DNA from: a virus
Taxonomy: Duplodnaviria; Caudoviricetes
IMG/VR virus record: IMGVR_UViG_3300022177_000048
Span: 1-43,874 of that record
DNA length: 43,874 nt
Direction: 5' to 3' (one strand)
Shown here: in pieces, positions 15,255-43,874 of the stretch
Layout of the letters: every line of letters begins with the position of its first letter
Numbering within the stretch: the stretch's first letter is position 1
Made by a program: the position numbers and the translations under genes
Notes under the pieces: generated by a model
Databases searched by the model: none
Seen by the model: the letters and a program-made list of their open reading frames with translations, nothing else
What the model was told of the DNA's origin: nothing

Positions 15255-15869
15255 TTGGAAACCTGGATTACTCATATTTACTCTGAATCAACGATGAATT
15301 GTGACTTTTGCGGATTGCATACTGGCGGGTACTCCTTTGGAATTGACGGATATTGCAACTCGGAACAGCCCGATGTATTTGATTCCCTTTTCAAAAAACG
15401 CGGAATGGAATGTTGTGGACCCTGCGCTACTATTCTTCTTGGCAAAGACTCCAAACCATATGCCGAAAGATATGATGCCTACCAAAAGCGGTGGGATGAT
15501 TTCCGCGGCATACAGTGGCGAGCCACTTGTAATCCGCTCGTGCAAATAAAAGCCTATAAACGATGGCATGTTGGGATTATGAGGGACAAATATGGTCGAA
15601 ACCAGTATGGCGTTTTGCTTGGGTCTGCTGAACGTTGGCATTGGAGAGAAAAAATGTCTCCTTACGAAGATCAGCGCAACATTGCCATCCGTGATGAGGA
15701 GACCGCAGAGCGAGTCGCGTTCCGGTGGGTCGATTTCGTGGACTTCTTCAATGTCAGTCCGGAAGACCCATATTCAACATCAGATTTTAACTCTCTTGCA
15801 AAGGCGCTTTTGCGCGGGGATGCGCCTGAAAATTTGGGTGATATCGATATTTACAGGAGACGGCTATGA
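15255..15869 (+). CDS. Hypothetical protein with N-terminal Cys cluster
   Basis: TTG start with GGAGG RBS; CDFC...C...CCGPC; ATGA overlap with the next gene. Confidence 0.7.
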   Translation: METWITHIYSESTMNCDFCGLHTGGYSFGIDGYCNSEQPDVFDSLFKKRGMECCGPCATILLGKDSKPYAERYDAYQKRWDDFRGIQWRATCNPLVQIKAYKRWHVGIMRDKYGRNQYGVLLGSAERWHWREKMSPYEDQRNIAIRDEETAERVAFRWVDFVDFFNVSPEDPYSTSDFNSLAKALLRGDAPENLGDIDIYRRRL

Positions 15870-16156
15870 GTGAAAAGCAATTAGAGCAAAAACTTGTCCG
15901 GGCAGTACGAGACATGGAGGGCATAGCGCCCAAGTTTGTCAGCCCTGGATTCGACGGTATGCCTGACCGGCTGGTACTTCTCCCTAAAGGCAGGATCGCT
16001 TTTGTGGAAGTGAAAGCAATGGGATGCAAACCCAAGCCGCGCCAAATATTAAGGCATGGAATGCTTCGGAAGCTTGGCTTCAAGGTGTATGTCCTGGACG
16101 ATGAAATGCAGATACAGCCACTGGTGTCAGAGATAATGGGAGGAGGTGATGCCTGA
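15866..16156 (+). CDS. VRR-NUC domain nuclease
   Basis: MSEKQLEQKL...GMPDRLVL...FVEVKA...P.Q. Confidence 0.92.
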   Translation: MSEKQLEQKLVRAVRDMEGIAPKFVSPGFDGMPDRLVLLPKGRIAFVEVKAMGCKPKPRQILRHGMLRKLGFKVYVLDDEMQIQPLVSEIMGGGDA

Positions 16157-17521
16157 TGAAGTTCATACCTCATGAGTATCAGCAATACGCCATTGATTAT
16201 CTTCTAGAGAAGCCTGTAGCCGCCATACTTTTGGATATGGGCTTAGGTTGAGGGCAAGACCGTTATTACCCTGACCGCCATCTTTGAACTTACGCTGGAC
16301 AGTTTCGAGATCCGTAATGTTCTGGTCATTGCTCCGCTACGGGTGGGAATAGAGACTTGGCCGGCTGAAATGAAAAAGTGGGATCACCTAAACGGGCTTA
16401 CCTGCTCGGTGGCTATAGGCAGCGAAGTCCAGCGAAAAGTTGCGCTTTTGCAGCCAGCACAGGTCTATATTATTAACCGGGAAAACATTGACTGGCTAGT
16501 GAATAAGAGCGGACTTCCCTTCGACTATGACATGGTGGTTATTGATGAATTGAGTTCATTTAAGGCTAACAGTTCCAAACGTTTCAAGGCGCTACGCAAG
16601 GTTCGTCCCAGTGTCAAAAGAGTGGTCGGCCTTACTGGAACGCCCTCCTCCAATGGATTGATAGATTTATGGGCTGAAGTCGGCATCCTTGACATGGGGC
16701 AGCGTCTTGGCCGGTATATTACCCACTTCCGCAATAATTACTTTATGCCCGACAAACGCAGCCAGCAGATGGTATTTTCATATAAGCCCCGGCCCGGTGC
16801 GGAGGAAGCCATCTATCGATTGATCTCGGACATTACTATCAGCATGAAAAATACCGATTATCTTAAATTGCCGGAGCTGGTGATAAATGAAATCCCCGTC
16901 AGGCTATCTGAAAAAGAGACCGACTGCTACCAGACAATGAAGCGCGAAATGGTGCTTTCTATCAAAGACAAGGAAATTGATGCGGTTAACGCCGCTGCGC
17001 TTTCCGGCAAGCTTCTCCAGATGGCAAACGGTGCGGTCTATGACGAAAGCGGCGGCGTAGCACATATTCACGACCGCAAGCTGGATGCGCTGGAGGATCT
17101 AATCGAAGCAGCCAACGGCAAGCCGGTTTTAATTGCCTACTGGTTCAAGCACGACCTTAAGCGGATACTGGAGCGTTTTCCCGCCGAGCGGCTGGACAGT
17201 ACCGGTTCCATAAAGCGATGGAATGACGGCGATATCCCGGTGGCCGTTATCCACCCCGCATCGGCGGGTCATGGTTTAAATCTACAATCTGGAGGTTCCA
17301 CCCTTGTATGGTTCTCCCTGACTTGGAGCCTGGAACTTTACCAGCAGACCAATGCCAGGCTCTGGCGGCAAGGGCAAAAGGACACCGTTGTTATTCATCA
17401 CATTATCGCCAAGAGCACGATTGACGAACAGGTCATGAAGGCTCTCCGACTAAAGGATAAAACCCAGACCGCCCTCATTGAAGCGGTCAAGGCAAACCTA
17501 AACAAGGAGGCGGTCGCATGA
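16156..17521 (+). CDS. SNF2-family helicase interrupted at Walker A (TGA at 16249, remainder in +1 frame); recoded gene or pseudogene
   Basis: 16156-16248 encodes MKFIPHEYQ...LDMGLG then TGA; from 16253 GKTVITLTAI... continues in frame with ORF 16343-17521 (IDELS, LTGTP, HPASAGHGLNLQ, QTNARLWRQG). Confidence 0.9.
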
Positions 17522-19164: not shown

Positions 19165-20400
19165 ATGAACACAACCGAGCGTTTTGAGAAAGTAAATATC
19201 GACCGGCTGGTACCATATGCACGCAATGCGCGCACTCACAGCAAGGAACAGATACTTCAGTTGAGAGCATCACTCCGGGAGTTCGGATTCGTCAACCCGG
19301 TCATCGTTGATAAAGATCTTAATGTCATCGCCGGGCATGGACGCATCCTGGCTGCCAAGGAGGAAGGCATTGGTGAAGTGCCCTGCGTGTTCGCGGAACA
19401 CCTGACCGAAGCTCAGAAGCGAGCCTACATTATAGCCGACAACCGGCTGGCCCTGAACGCTGGCTGGGATGATGAAATGCTCTCAGTAGAGATTGCCGAT
19501 CTGCAGGGCGCGGACTTCGACATCTCCCTCCTCGGTTTTAACGACGCGGAACTGAATAAGCTGCTGGGCGCTCTTGAGGATGTGAAGGACGACGACTTTG
19601 ATGTAGAAGGCGAACTGGCCAAGCCCGCTGTAACAAAGCCAGGCGACCTGTGGCTTTTAGGACAGCACCGCGTTGTCTGCGGTGACAGCACCCAAGCGGA
19701 TACCTATACCCTGCTTATGGACGGTAAACTTGCCAACCTGGTAGTAACCGATCCTCCCTACAACGTTAACTATGAGGGTACGGCGGGCAAGATTAAAAAC
19801 GATAACATGGCGGACGAAAAGTTTTACCAGTTCCTGCTGGAAGCTTTCACCCTGACCGAAAAGGCTATGGCCAGGGATGCAAGTATCTATGTTTTCCACG
19901 CCGACACTGAGGGGTTTAATTTCCGTAAAGCGTTTAAGGATGCGGGATTCTATTTATCAGGAACGTGTATATGGAAAAAGCAGTCGCTGGTCTTGGGACG
20001 TTCGCCTTACCAGTGGCAGCATGAGCCGATATTGTTTGGCTGGAAAAAAGCCGGCAAACACGCCTGGTACTCCGACCGCAAGCAGTCTACCATCTGGGAG
20101 TTCGACAAACCTAGGAAAAACACCGATCATCCTACGATGAAGCCAGTGCCGCTGGTCGCGTACCCGATAATCAATTCCAGCATGACGGGCTGTATTGTTC
20201 TTGATCCCTTCGGCGGATCGGGCAGCACCCTGATCGCCTGTGAGCAGACCGGACGGATTTGCCACACCGTGGAACTGGATGAGAAGTTCTGCGATGTTAT
20301 CGTGAACAGGTACATCGATTTAAAAGGTTCTGACGCTGATGTTTTCCTTTTGCGCGGCGGTCATAAAATTCCCTTTGAAAGCATGCAAAAAATCGTGTAG
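19165..20400 (+). CDS. ParB-like N-terminal domain fused to an N6A/N4C DNA methyltransferase
   Basis: YARNARTH, IAGHGR, ADNRL; TDPPY, HPTMKP, DPFGGSGST. Confidence 0.93.
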   Translation: MNTTERFEKVNIDRLVPYARNARTHSKEQILQLRASLREFGFVNPVIVDKDLNVIAGHGRILAAKEEGIGEVPCVFAEHLTEAQKRAYIIADNRLALNAGWDDEMLSVEIADLQGADFDISLLGFNDAELNKLLGALEDVKDDDFDVEGELAKPAVTKPGDLWLLGQHRVVCGDSTQADTYTLLMDGKLANLVVTDPPYNVNYEGTAGKIKNDNMADEKFYQFLLEAFTLTEKAMARDASIYVFHADTEGFNFRKAFKDAGFYLSGTCIWKKQSLVLGRSPYQWQHEPILFGWKKAGKHAWYSDRKQSTIWEFDKPRKNTDHPTMKPVPLVAYPIINSSMTGCIVLDPFGGSGSTLIACEQTGRICHTVELDEKFCDVIVNRYIDLKGSDADVFLLRGGHKIPFESMQKIV

Positions 20401-21489: not shown

Positions 21490-22389
21490 ATGTTCAACGC
21501 CAAATTCGGAATCGAGATTGAATTTACCGGGATTACCAGAAGCCAGGCCGCCGAGATTGCGGCACAGTTTTTAAACGGGAGGATTGAGCACTGCCGAGAC
21601 AGCTACGATACCCAAAAGGTATACACCCCAGACGGACGAGCCTGGAAGTTTATGAGCGACGGGAGCATTCGCCGGGAAGTTAAGGTGAGCGGCAGAAAAA
21701 TAAGCGCCGAGCACGAATACAGCGTTGAATTGGTAAGCCCGGTTTTAACCTACCGCGAGGACATAGCCACCCTGCAGGAATTGGTCAGAAAGCTTCGCAA
21801 AGCCGGGGCATTTACCAACCCCTCCTGCGGGATACACATTCACCTGAACGGCGCGGACCATACGCCAAGGAGCATTAGAAACTTTATAAACATCATCGCC
21901 AGCAAGAACGACCTTTTTTACAAGGCTCTGCAGATAGAACCTGAGCGGATGAGGTTCTGCAAAAAGATGGATGCCACCCTGGTGGAAAAGATAAACGTCA
22001 GAAGGCCGAGAATCATGCGGGAGCTTGAGGAACTTTGGTACGAAGGCTACTGCGAAAGCCGCAGCCGCCACTACCATGAAAGCCGCTACCACTTTTTAAA
22101 CCTGCACAGCTTTTGGAACGGCAACTACACGGTGGAGTTGCGGGGATTTAACAGCGAACTGCACGCGGGCAAAATCAGAAGCTACATAGTCTTAGCCCTG
22201 GCCATGAACCAGCAGGCCTTGACCCAAAGGAGCGCCAGCGCCAGAAAGCCCCAGGTTGAAAACGAAAAGTTCGCCATGCGGACCTACTTAAACCGCATCG
22301 GCTTGATCGGCGAGGAGTTCAAAAACTGCCGCGAGCACCTTTGCAAACACCTGGGAGGTTCGGCGGCATGGAGGTTTCGGGCGGCTTAA
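21490..22389 (+). CDS. Putative amidoligase (COOH-NH2 ligase, Amidoligase_2-like)
   Basis: FGIEIE, DGSI, ELVSP, SCGIHIH, RYHFLN and TVELR motifs. Confidence 0.88.
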   Translation: MFNAKFGIEIEFTGITRSQAAEIAAQFLNGRIEHCRDSYDTQKVYTPDGRAWKFMSDGSIRREVKVSGRKISAEHEYSVELVSPVLTYREDIATLQELVRKLRKAGAFTNPSCGIHIHLNGADHTPRSIRNFINIIASKNDLFYKALQIEPERMRFCKKMDATLVEKINVRRPRIMRELEELWYEGYCESRSRHYHESRYHFLNLHSFWNGNYTVELRGFNSELHAGKIRSYIVLALAMNQQALTQRSASARKPQVENEKFAMRTYLNRIGLIGEEFKNCREHLCKHLGGSAAWRFRAA

Positions 22390-22427
22390 GCCGCCGCCGA
22401 AACCAGCGATAAAGGAGGCTAATTCTA

Positions 22428-22886
22428 ATGGATAAGCATAACAAACTGTACATCGCCTATGGTTCCAACCTCAATCTTGCGCAGATGGCTGACCGATGTC
22501 CAACTGCCAGAGTTATCGGCTCCGGCGAGATGAAAGGCTGGCGGCTCCTGTTCAGGGGTTCGCGTGCGGGTGCGGTAGCAACGGTGGAACCTGAAAAAGG
22601 CAGCAGCGTTCCAGTTCTGGTTTGGGAGATAACCTCCGCCGACGAAGCGGCGCTCGACCGCTATGAAGGCTGGCCTTTTTTATACCGCAAGGAAACCGTC
22701 AAGGTGAAAATAAACGGCAAGACAGTCAAGGCAATGGTATATATCATAAACGAAGGCAGGCCGCCGGGCCAGCCCAGCTGCTATTATTACTCGGTCATCT
22801 TGGATGGCTATAAGGAAGCGGGCTTTGATATTGATATCCTGCGCCGGGCAGCCACCGAATCTGTAGAGATGGAGGAAGCCAGATGA
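22428..22886 (+). CDS. Gamma-glutamylcyclotransferase (AIG2-like) family protein
   Basis: YIAYGSNL..QM..RCP, LDRYEG.P..Y.K. Confidence 0.9.
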   Translation: MDKHNKLYIAYGSNLNLAQMADRCPTARVIGSGEMKGWRLLFRGSRAGAVATVEPEKGSSVPVLVWEITSADEAALDRYEGWPFLYRKETVKVKINGKTVKAMVYIINEGRPPGQPSCYYYSVILDGYKEAGFDIDILRRAATESVEMEEAR

Positions 22887-40983: not shown

Positions 40984-42294
40984 ATGGAAAGAATAGTTAA
41001 GAAGATATCACCGTCGGTGTTGCCGCTTCCGGCAAGATTACGGGTGGCCGCCTATGCCCGTGTTTCATCCGGAAAAGATGAAATGCTTCATTCCCTTGCG
41101 GCTCAGGTCAGCTATTACAGCAACCTCATTCAGCAACGACCGGATTGGCAATATGCTGGTGTATACGCCGACGAGGCATTGACGGGAACCAAGGAGACTC
41201 GTCCACAATTTCAGCGTCTGATTGCCGATTGTAAGGATGGCCGCATTGACCTGGTCATTACTAAATCAATATCACGCTTTGCCCGAAACACGGTAACGCT
41301 TCTTGAAACCGTGCGAGAACTGAAACGGCTTGGGGTCGACGTTTATTTTGAGGAGCAGAATATTCACTCTATGAGCGGGGATGGAGAACTTATGCTCTCC
41401 ATCCTAGCATCCTACGCCCAGGAAGAAAGCCGCTCGGTCAGTGAGAACTGCAAGTGGCGGATTCGCAAACAGTTTCAGCAAGGTGAGATCGTAAACCTGC
41501 GTTTCATGTACGGGTACCGAATCAACAATGGTCAAATTGAAATCGATCAGGAACAGGCCGAAATTGTTAGACTGATCTATACCGATTACATAAACGGCCT
41601 GGGATGCGACCGGATCGCTGCCAGGCTGCGGGAAACGGGTGCACTGACGTATCACGGCAGAGAGTGGACAGCCAAACGGGTCCTGGCCATTCTTAATAAC
41701 GAGAAGTATTCTGGCAACGCGCTGCTTCAGAAAAAGTATGTCGCCGACCACTTGTCCAAAAAGCTGGTTTATAATCGTGGAATCCTGCCAAAGTACTATG
41801 CTGAAGGAACCCATGAGCCGATCATTGACCCTCTCACCTTTCAAAAGGCGCAGGAAATCATGGCCGAGCGCCGGGAGAATGGGAATGTCTGGAAAAACCC
41901 CGCCAACCGTTATCCGTTTTCGGGCATAATTTTCTGCCCCCGCTGCGGAAAGAACTACCGACATGTAACCTACAAGGGACATACAGCCTGGAACTGTGCC
42001 ACCTTCATTCACTCCGGCAAAGACGCCTGCCCAGCTAAGCAAATCCCAGAACCAATATTGTTTTCGCTGACCGCTGAAGTGTTGGGTTTGGCGGAATTTA
42101 ACGAGGTGATTTTCCGGTCCGAGATCAAGCAGATGCAGGTACCGGAGCCCAACAAGGTCATATATATCTTCCAGGATGGCCGTGAAATTAAAGCAGTCTG
42201 GCAAGACCGGTCGCGCAAATCAAGCTGGGACAGTGATAAAAAACAGCAGGCGCGGGATAGGGCGCTTGCATACCAAAGGGGGGATTTGAAATGA
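40984..42294 (+). CDS. Large serine recombinase 1
   Basis: AAYARVSS, TKSISRFARN, AQEESRSVSEN, EKYSG, Zn ribbon CPRCG; no long coiled coil. Confidence 0.95.
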   Translation: MERIVKKISPSVLPLPARLRVAAYARVSSGKDEMLHSLAAQVSYYSNLIQQRPDWQYAGVYADEALTGTKETRPQFQRLIADCKDGRIDLVITKSISRFARNTVTLLETVRELKRLGVDVYFEEQNIHSMSGDGELMLSILASYAQEESRSVSENCKWRIRKQFQQGEIVNLRFMYGYRINNGQIEIDQEQAEIVRLIYTDYINGLGCDRIAARLRETGALTYHGREWTAKRVLAILNNEKYSGNALLQKKYVADHLSKKLVYNRGILPKYYAEGTHEPIIDPLTFQKAQEIMAERRENGNVWKNPANRYPFSGIIFCPRCGKNYRHVTYKGHTAWNCATFIHSGKDACPAKQIPEPILFSLTAEVLGLAEFNEVIFRSEIKQMQVPEPNKVIYIFQDGREIKAVWQDRSRKSSWDSDKKQQARDRALAYQRGDLK

Positions 42295-43874
42295 AGCCCA
42301 CCCGAGCCGTTACTGTCATACCGCCAACCATGAACCGCTTTGCACCGGAGACACCAGGTTTGGCCCCAAGAAAAAGAGTAGCCGCCTATGCCCGCGTTTC
42401 AACAGATTCTGATGAACAGCTTACCAGCTATGAAGCCCAGGTAGACTACTACACCAAATACATCAAGGAACGTGCCGATTGGGAATTTGCCGGAATCTAC
42501 ACCGATGAGGGCATCAGTGCCACCAATACCAAAAAACGCGAGGGATTTAAGCAGATGGTCGCTGATTCACTTGACGGGAAGATCAACCTGATAGTTACTA
42601 AATCCGTCAGCCGCTTTGCGAGAAACACGGTTGATTCCTTAGTTACAGTGCGTCAGTTAAAAGAAAAAGGTGTAGAGGTTTATTTTGAAAAGGAGAACAT
42701 TTATACGCTGGACAGCAAGGGGGAGCTTTTAATCACCATCATGTCCAGCCTGGCCCAGGAGGAAAGCCGTTCAATCTCCGAAAACGTAACCTGGGGACAG
42801 CGCAAACGCATGGCGGATGGAAAAGTCAGCATGCCTTATGCCCACTTCCTTGGTTACGAAAAGGGCGAGGATGGGTTGCCCAAAATCGTAGAAAGGGAAG
42901 CGGAAACAGTTCGTCTGATTTACCGGATGTTTCTTGAAGGTAAAACGCCTTCAGCCATTTCAAAACACCTCGCCAATCAGGGTATCCCCTCGCCATGCGG
43001 CAAGAAAACTTGGCAAGTGGCGACAGTAATAAGCATTCTCACAAATGAAAAATATAAGGGGGACGCACTTCTGCAAAAACGCTTCACGGTGGATTTTCTC
43101 ACTAAAACCACCAAAGTGAACGAGGGCGAGGTTCCCCAATACTATGTTCAGAACAGCCACCCAGCCATTATTGAGCCGGACGAATTCGATGCGGTACAGA
43201 ATGAAATGGAACGGCGTAAAAAGCTCGGCCGGCCAGTCAGCTGCCACAGTCCGTTTTCAGCAAAAATTATTTGCGGCGAGTGCGGCGGTTTCTACGGCTC
43301 CAAGGTCTGGGGCTCAAACACCAAATATCGGCGCAAGGTATGGCGGTGTAATGAGAAGTACAAAAACGCCAAACCTTGCCAAACACCCCATATCACAGAG
43401 GATGAAATTAAGCATCGGTTTCTAACGGCATTTAATATACTGATGGGTGGTAGAGATGAGCTGCTCGCCAGCTGCCGGCTGGCTCAAGAGGTCTTATGCG
43501 ACTGTTCAGCAATTGAAACAGAACTCGCGGAACTGCAGCGTGAAATTGAAGTTGTTTCCGAACTCACGAAAAAATCCATTTATGAAAATGCCCGCTTTGC
43601 CGTTAATCAGGATGAATTTAATGAACGCCACAGCGGGTACATGGAACGCCATCAGATGGCTACTGAGCAAGTTGCTGGATTGGAAACGCTACGTAATACT
43701 CGCCGTGAGAAGCATAAAACCCTGGAGGCTTTTATCCGGGACATAGAAACCCGGCCGGTAATTATTGACGAATTCGATGAAAAACTATGGCTGGCCATTA
43801 TTGACAAAGTCACTGTATTGCCAGATGGTAGGCTCGTGTTTACCTTTAAGGGCGGTACAGATATTAAAGCATAA
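42291..43874 (+). CDS. Large serine recombinase 2
   Basis: AAYARVST, KSVSRFARN, AQEESRSISEN, EKYKG, Zn ribbon CGECG, C-terminal coiled coil. Confidence 0.95.
   Translation: MKPTRAVTVIPPTMNRFAPETPGLAPRKRVAAYARVSTDSDEQLTSYEAQVDYYTKYIKERADWEFAGIYTDEGISATNTKKREGFKQMVADSLDGKINLIVTKSVSRFARNTVDSLVTVRQLKEKGVEVYFEKENIYTLDSKGELLITIMSSLAQEESRSISENVTWGQRKRMADGKVSMPYAHFLGYEKGEDGLPKIVEREAETVRLIYRMFLEGKTPSAISKHLANQGIPSPCGKKTWQVATVISILTNEKYKGDALLQKRFTVDFLTKTTKVNEGEVPQYYVQNSHPAIIEPDEFDAVQNEMERRKKLGRPVSCHSPFSAKIICGECGGFYGSKVWGSNTKYRRKVWRCNEKYKNAKPCQTPHITEDEIKHRFLTAFNILMGGRDELLASCRLAQEVLCDCSAIETELAELQREIEVVSELTKKSIYENARFAVNQDEFNERHSGYMERHQMATEQVAGLETLRNTRREKHKTLEAFIRDIETRPVIIDEFDEKLWLAIIDKVTVLPDGRLVFTFKGGTDIKA

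Follow-up and report, generated by a model that had tools for sequence, protein, structure and literature searches.

To our knowledge, only a handful of systems make use of translational bypassing. In the closest of them, T4 gene 60/MobA, a glycine take-off codon is followed by a stop codon or, in some relatives, by a rare Arg codon (10.1101/2022.08.31.505936; PMC5009743), the landing codon is read by the same tRNA and lies directly 5' of the codon at which reading resumes, RNA pairs 5' of the take-off codon, and an upstream HNH gene is often lost while the gap stays. Each of these features appears to have a counterpart in the phage helicase genes described here, where the pairing would take the form of a 9-bp long-range helix joining the gene start to the bases before the take-off codon. 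The gene 60 gap measures 20-50 nt, whereas the helicase gaps measure 4-12 nt and fall in all three frames, and helicase landing, unlike that of gene 60, would need two of three base pairs only. The long take-off stem-loop containing the stop in gene 60 has no counterpart in the helicase genes, and most helicase gaps are too short for a mini Shine-Dalgarno such as the one located 6 nt before the gene 60 landing site. The pairing proposed to drive gene 60 lies ~26 nt 5' of the P site, whereas that of the helicase abuts the take-off codon (10.1101/2024.12.09.627546). Also unlike gene 60, the broken gene is an SNF2 helicase interrupted in Walker A, the hosts are Bacillota, and the hop is a prediction from sequence comparison. 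By analogy, the helicase gap likely works as gene 60 does; membership in the gene 60 element is a separate claim, and the passages covered of 10.1101/2022.08.31.505936 hold no mention of a helicase.

Shorter jumps have also been described. In synthetic E. coli stop-hops, glycine codons read by one tRNA flank a stop (PMC5009743), and our 6-nt in-frame alleles are built exactly so; unlike those constructs, the helicase gaps are natural, conserved and mostly out of frame. In the passages covered, this 2016 review gives no natural in-frame stop hop as known. The UUA bypass of Streptomyces phage Hau3, within its terminase gene (PMC10732093), likewise spans a short gap (10 nt) in a phage gene, with a 5' stem-loop as its proposed stimulator. 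Its trigger is a developmentally regulated sense codon, proposed to act as a regulatory sensor, whereas in the helicase genes a stop almost always takes that place and we see no evident regulator; helicases are not mentioned in the passages covered of that paper. The mitochondrial byps of Magnusiomyces capitatus (PMC5009743) resemble the helicase gaps in their short inserts, imperfect take-off/landing match and two-of-three pairing, but they occupy many sites and are decoded by organelle ribosomes with relaxed decoding, whereas the helicase gap sits at one fixed site on bacterial ribosomes. We found no report of recoding at this helicase site in the main texts of open-licence papers; published lists of frameshifted genes may nevertheless include these helicases.

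A helicase gene broken inside Walker A

The window analysed here, all 43,874 nt of IMG/VR record IMGVR_UViG_3300022177_000048, is a 43.9-kb temperate phage genome that encodes a DUF2800 exonuclease, SSB, PolA, a VapE-type primase, a VRR-NUC nuclease and an SNF2 helicase, together with terminase, portal, capsid, amidase and two serine recombinases. The closest helicase in the phage collection (81.5%) belongs to a Syntrophomonadaceae phage, and the protein is 68.9% identical to that of NatCom_991, a named heliusvirus (PMC11283538). Ca. Heliusvirales, a group defined by a TerL clade and nine marker genes (PMC11283538), is a candidate placement for this phage, with matching gene functions present in the window. 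The helicase is listed there as a marker spread over many protein clusters, and the passages covered mention neither a frameshift nor a stop codon. Elsewhere the window carries a C5 cytosine methyltransferase and a Vsr endonuclease on the minus strand (1-2666), a 204-aa ORF with two CxxC pairs and no Pfam or PHROG match between the primase and VRR-NUC genes (15255-15869), a second methyltransferase of N4/N6 type with a ParB domain (19165-20400), an amidoligase and gamma-glutamyl cyclotransferase pair within the packaging region (21490-22886), and, where the contig ends, a tandem pair of genes for large serine recombinases (40984-43874).

The sole SNF2-type helicase gene of this phage contains 7 extra bases, including a stop codon, inside its ATP-binding loop (Walker A). 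Its ATG at 16156 overlaps the TGA of the upstream VRR-NUC nuclease gene (15866..16156, plus strand; PF08774, E 0.0013; phrog_93) and is preceded by a strong Shine-Dalgarno-like sequence (16142..16150, plus strand) 5 nt 5' of the ATG; an identical 11-mer from this region is found in the same register in 78 of 125 gapped genes. Piece 1 comprises 31 codons (16156..16248, plus strand), among them the conserved Y8-Q9 and the opening half of the Walker A motif, and ends in DMGLG at the putative take-off codon GGT (16246..16248, plus strand). The 7-nt coding gap that follows (16249..16255, plus strand) consists of TGA (16249-51), G (16252) and the putative landing codon GGC (16253-55), after which AAG ACC reopens the frame at Lys-Thr, 7 nt past the glycine codon of DMGLG. 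Piece 2 starts at this Walker A Lys-Thr and extends for 421 codons (16256..17521, plus strand), with SNF2-related, DEAD and Helicase_C domains and a match to phrog_62. The coordinates, the TGATG overlap at 16156, the 452-aa sum of the two pieces (31 + 421 codons) and the lack of any further disruption had been described in a first-pass annotation of this DNA, and all hold. The annotation was also correct that the program-made ORF list misses the N-terminal piece: the list places the helicase start past Walker A, at GTG 16343. Neither a second helicase copy nor a phage-encoded suppressor tRNA was found in the 43.9-kb genome.

The break is genuine, being neither an assembly error nor a product of chance. 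The site is crossed without a single difference or gap by contigs from run X1 (depth 127) and run X2 (depth 265), either of which may be the source sample. Contigs from three additional studies (runs X3, X4 and X11) also cross it, with 27-34 differing letters and again no gap, and the assembly error that had been listed among the alternatives is thereby ruled out. X8 contigs do not bridge the site, and the two RNA-labelled runs, X23 and X24, have no coverage there. A gap-deleted form was absent from the contigs of eight runs, five of them spanning the site, although contigs drop rare variants. Chance is rejected because 19 IMG/VR loci share the 7-nt form, in a pattern that fixed a GGN landing codon, with the downstream frame open for 414-429 codons in 19/19, and because 13 of the 78 relatives that hold the site among the best 80 are broken at the same place. 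The insertion is thus neither unique to this genome nor missing from the assembled reads, and hundreds of relatives are gapped. Runs X1 and X2 also contain, over window positions 16253-16495, an intact relative with an E-M-G-L-G motif at similar depth that is near-identical farther downstream.

Examination of 698 sequences, 618 of which passed a filter on the site and motif II, gave after duplicate removal 279 distinct SNF2 genes broken directly after the DMGLG glycine codon and 178 intact genes. Gaps in 277 of the 279 are 4-12 nt long and cover all three frames (4 nt, 56; 5 nt, 118; 6 nt, 62; 7 nt, 29; 8 nt, 3; 9 nt, 4; 10 nt, 4; 12 nt, 1). The remaining two gaps are 1 nt; in both genes (L267, L290) a GGG take-off codon is followed by TAA and they look like plain +1 slips, L267 having an HNH gene upstream. 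The pattern L-D-M-G-L-G followed by TGA matched at least 119 loci (~220 estimated), 109 of the 119 being SNF2 homologs, and the same pattern followed by TAA or TAG matched at least 120 (~230 estimated), with 117 of 120 homologous; three homologs in these sets were judged by eye, and the non-homologs are chance matches. Intact genes number ~5200, an estimate from 2 of 64 parts. By these rough scan estimates, gapped genes make up ~8% of these phage helicases, a share likely mis-annotated as truncated genes or pseudogenes. Of the 120 GTDB matches listed, 105 proved to be gapped homologs, 104 of them recognised by script and 1 by eye; 103 of the 105 are labelled Bacillota, 1 is a bacterium and 1 an archaeal MAG; where a host is named, nearly all gapped genes belong to Bacillota phages. 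Loci L017 and L148 place a gapped and an intact SNF2 gene on one 70-kb IMG/VR contig, which may represent two prophages or a chimera. In P0003 the N-terminus of a VapE primase is fused to the helicase from residue 45, so that Walker A is lacking, probably by deletion.

Both sides of the break are maintained. Among viral loci, the downstream frame stays open for 380 codons or more in 140 of the 143 gapped and 119 of the 121 intact ones; in GTDB the count is 63 of 67. When dN/dS was pooled over disjoint pairs at 80-99.5% identity, with the two pieces analysed separately, same-allele pairs (n=44) gave 0.074 after the gap (dS 0.47) and 0.139 before it, different-allele pairs (n=32) gave 0.081 and 0.146, and intact pairs (n=35) gave 0.099 after the site and 0.150 before. 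Across gapped pairs the values are thus 0.14-0.16 for piece 1 and 0.07-0.08 for piece 2, similar to those of intact pairs. The gapped genes are widespread and, judging from these ratios, under purifying selection in both halves. A simple inactivating insertion, another alternative raised at first pass, is rejected as an explanation of the family.

Putative take-off and landing codons and a predicted upstream helix

Because gaps occur in all three frames, no single frameshift or readthrough event could serve the whole family, and one product across alleles therefore needs an event that is blind to frame. The prfB +1 frameshift is UGA-specific and shifts by +1 only, whereas the helicase family uses TGA, TAG and TAA in three frames, so a prfB-like shift at GGT-TGA, which the first-pass annotation had also entertained, fails for the family. 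We consider it probable that peptidyl-tRNA-Gly hops over the gap and so rejoins the two pieces, because hundreds of related genes share the break site with both halves conserved. In this phage the stop codon TGA would stall the A site while peptidyl-tRNA-Gly, presumably with anticodon GCC, releases GGU, slides 7 bases and re-pairs at GGC, and translation would resume at the lysine codon with a junction of LG-K.

The codons around the gap fit such an event. Where the search patterns allowed GGN, the take-off codon is GGY in 194 of 197 gapped genes against 117 of 161 intact ones. A scan fixing bases only up to the glycine codon (120 loci listed) returned 83 stop-first gaps (one by eye) and 4 sense-first gaps, so that 83 of 87 gaps open with a stop, along with 28 intact and 5 unrelated loci. 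Its 115 homologs contain no long insert at the site and no in-frame sense insertion; the homologs from the TGA and TAA/TAG patterns likewise lack long inserts. A scan for gaps opening with A, C or G (120 loci listed) gave 19 gapped homologs, 3 intact false matches and 98 unrelated loci. These 19 sense-first gaps are all 4-5 nt long with none in frame, and in 18 of them the opening codon encodes Pro (CCA or CCG) or else Arg (AGG or CGG).

On the landing side, the codon before the Walker A Lys forms at least two pairs with anticodon GCC in 276 of 277 genes, where the null gives a mean of 114 and a maximum of 133. Counted by distinct alleles the figure is 41 of 42 (null 13.7, max 23), and among non-redundant genes it is 135 of 136 (null 52.6, max 70). 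The score was, however, devised after the alleles were seen, and 19 loci come from the pattern fixing a GGN landing codon. The offset just before Lys scores best in 271 of 277 genes (null 91, max 111), and the later-found sense-first gaps obey the two-of-three rule in 19/19 cases. GGA, AGY and GAY are common landing codons, the commonest being GGA (94/277), which has a wobble mismatch to anticodon GCC and is a two-pair match. Landing codons that open with anything other than GG end in C or T in 89 of 90 genes; in the non-redundant set this holds for 50 of 51 such landings against 50 of 85 GG landings (p 5e-8, which like our other p values is overstated, related genes not being independent). 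This C/T equivalence is not predicted by mere descent from an old glycine codon. In some alleles a one-base slip scores nearly as high as the hop. An in-frame stop and a wobble-type equivalence matter to a ribosome and not to splicing or DNA excision, and we infer from this that the event is ribosomal.

The first-pass annotation had read this gene as a stop-hop between matched glycine codons that might tie helicase output to RF2 level. Frames, landing rule, stop or slow codon and selection all speak for the stop-hop, while two details of that reading did not survive. Matched codons are found in this phage (GGT/GGC) and are not a family rule, since two of three pairs suffice. RF2 sensing finds no support and was set aside, since TAG, TAA and sense codons fill the same place as TGA. 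The upstream helix and the HNH link described below were not part of that annotation.

The gapped genes also show unusual constraint at synonymous sites. Codons 2-4 are fixed as AAG (96%), TTC (94%) and ATA (85%), a bias imposed by no search pattern, and among the codons before take-off the glycine is GGC in 179 of 197 gapped genes against 33 of 161 intact ones, and TTG, TTA or CTC encodes the leucine in 189 of 197 gapped and 52 of 161 intact genes. Codons between these two segments vary as freely in gapped as in intact genes. The two segments are complementary over 9 bp, pairing 16159..16167 (codons 2-4, plus strand) with 16236..16244 (plus strand), the latter ending one base 5' of the take-off codon. 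With respect to a nascent-peptide stimulator such as that of gene 60, the sole residues that are more fixed in gapped genes are 2-4 (K-F-I), whose codons form the predicted helix. An ATG lies 31 codons upstream in 110 of 136 non-redundant gapped genes, and 8 or 9 of the 9 pairs can form in 95 of these 110 compared with 4 of 52 intact genes. Two-sided compensatory change was seen in 11 cells against 2.0 when shuffled, a number reached by 0 of 500 shuffles; intact genes gave none above chance. When a G occurs at start+4 the opposite base is C in 7 of 7 genes, and when it occurs at start+11 the opposite base is C in 5 of 6.

The 9-bp helix is absent from this phage's own minimum-energy fold, in which the 3' strand uses a local partner (16210..16218, plus strand; not stabler than shuffles, z 0.24) or the Shine-Dalgarno region, and it was not recovered in the alignment consensus fold. 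At -9 kcal/mol, 15 of the 136 gapped genes lack both the far and the local duplex. By energy alone local hairpins are not distinctive (64/136 gapped, 52/97 intact); enrichment is confined to very strong ones, which occur in 6 of the 26 gapped genes that miss the far helix, as compared with 4 of the other 110 and 2 of 97 intact genes. In the gapped loci L009, L035, L050, L227, L245 and L278, where the long-range helix is missing, its 3' strand takes part in a strong local hairpin instead. A tetraloop hairpin enclosing the take-off codon was considered as the cause of the codon bias and was superseded by the long-range helix: it is weak, as only a 3-bp stem can close there, with a mean pairing probability of 0.2. 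A hairpin next to the E site stimulates forward shifting in E. coli extracts without RF2 (PMC6321510), which offers a possible mechanism for the helix. From its position directly 5' of take-off, the helix may push the ribosome forward or keep the following ribosome away; alternatively, it might block initiation by the next ribosome.

Other explanations of the gap

Each allele could instead undergo its own ordinary recoding, by +1 or -1 frameshifting or by readthrough, to give a P-loop 1-4 residues longer, which here would be LG-E-G-K by a +1 shift. The two 1-nt alleles do read as +1 slips at a stop, the last three bases of the 4-nt alleles vary only synonymously in the +1 frame, and in E. coli extracts +1 shifting can be promoted by a hairpin upstream (PMC6321510). 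We nevertheless find this unlikely: three mechanisms would be required that swap between close relatives, for example 5- and 7-nt alleles at 96% identity; in-frame sense insertions are absent from both the 115 homologs and the 19 sense-first gaps; solved SNF2 ATPases keep the DMGLGKT spacing (1z63); and the landing rule is not predicted. It is quite unlikely that the extra bases are removed before translation, either from RNA by cutting and joining or polymerase skipping, or from DNA in a subpopulation. Such removal would also be frame-blind, guidance could come from a helix in the RNA or in single-stranded DNA, and the deleted form could escape notice as a rare variant dropped from contigs. 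It leaves unexplained, however, why an in-frame stop or slow codon comes first in the gap and why C and T are equivalent at the third landing base, which fits wobble decoding; furthermore, the 4-nt alleles have no flanking repeat, and none of the contigs of the eight runs (five spanning the site) carries the deleted form.

A third reading holds that the genes are dead, representing scars of homing endonucleases or mobile elements in hitchhiking prophages or in phages complemented by an intact relative. On the tree of piece 2 (213 tips), gapped genes are indeed scattered among intact ones in 56 gapped-only groups, with 43 changes of state against 70 when shuffled; gapped-intact pairs reach 97% identity, an intact relative co-occurs in X1 and X2, and most sampled loci are prophage-like. 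Against it stand the same-allele pairs with dS 0.47 and dN/dS 0.074, the conservation of the travelling 31-codon piece as well (0.14), the absence of long inserts in 115 homologs and of a second helicase copy in this phage, and the three kinds of stop, the landing rule and the compensatory pairs, which require selection. We regard this reading as very unlikely and as already largely refuted. The gapped-only clades were not used as evidence of vertical descent because intact genes were sampled at only ~2-3%. Least probable of all, and extremely so, is that termination and re-initiation give two separate chains that assemble into a split enzyme. Several gaps resemble a Shine-Dalgarno sequence (TAAGGA, TGAGG), and there are cases of enzymes split through homing endonucleases (cited in 10.1101/2022.08.31.505936). 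Re-initiation is rejected because no start codon is available between the stop and the lysine; in addition, the first conserved residue past the gap is the Walker A lysine itself (AAA and AAG about equal) and 4-nt gaps lack an SD-like motif. In our view a short ribosomal hop is the best explanation.

HNH genes and a possible origin of the gap

In some gapped relatives an HNH gene lies between the VRR-NUC gene and the helicase, whereas in this phage no HNH gene or HNH remnant was found upstream of the helicase. Among gapped loci, 36 of 208 have an HNH_3 gene whose end coincides with the helicase start, compared with 3 of 127 intact loci (one of the three a weak partial match). In the non-redundant sets the figures are 30 of 136 gapped, spread over 17 gap alleles, and 1 of 89 intact; the other 106 gapped genes are without an HNH gene. 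The two clear intact HNH carriers have D-C-G-L-G in place of D-M-G-L-G; at L170:2403-2921 and L180, an HNH gene lies upstream of an ungapped helicase with D-C-G-L-G-K-T, possibly a second route to endonuclease immunity. A sequence boundary also coincides with the gap. Over 13 close gapped-intact pairs, identity past the gap is 0.83 but only 0.67 across the preceding 90 nt, and 10 of the pairs show this drop, whereas control pairs give 0.91/0.87 (gapped-gapped, drop in 2/52) and 0.88/0.87 (intact-intact, drop in 2/29).

The HNH link, the mosaic boundary at the gap and the scattered tree fit a cassette moved by homing from which the HNH gene was later lost. The gap may have arisen as protection against the HNH homing endonuclease encoded just upstream, and this endonuclease would then have brought the gap, along with the first 31 codons, to further helicase genes. 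On these patterns it is likely that HNH gene, first 31 codons and gap moved together as a homing cassette, with later loss of the HNH gene from most genomes, this phage included. An intron or insertion-sequence scar was rejected as the source, as no full-length element was found and long inserts number 0 among 115 homologs. A more far-reaching proposal, which we advance tentatively and hold to be possible although doubtful, is that the 31 codons form a self-contained cassette whose helix both drives an efficient Gly-tRNA hop with relaxed landing and meters ribosome loading. HNH would have spread it across Bacillota phage helicases, and it would be kept after HNH loss since it controls how much helicase is made and protects Walker A against homing by HNH and inteins.

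The family offers more than 40 natural gap alleles at one site in three frames, in effect a natural set of mutants for take-off, stop, landing and stimulator, and makes short bypassing on Gram-positive ribosomes directly testable. It also suggests that the pairing of a homing endonuclease with a recoded gap is a strategy used repeatedly, T4 being no isolated case. Walker A seems to be a homing target for other elements too, since at least 25 of 120 longer homologs contain intein-like inserts directly after the Walker A lysine, several with LAGLIDADG domains; these sit 3 nt downstream of the gap site and are in frame. Among the carriers are P0011, P0036 and P0043, and further insertion sites occur near residues 132, 288 and 369.
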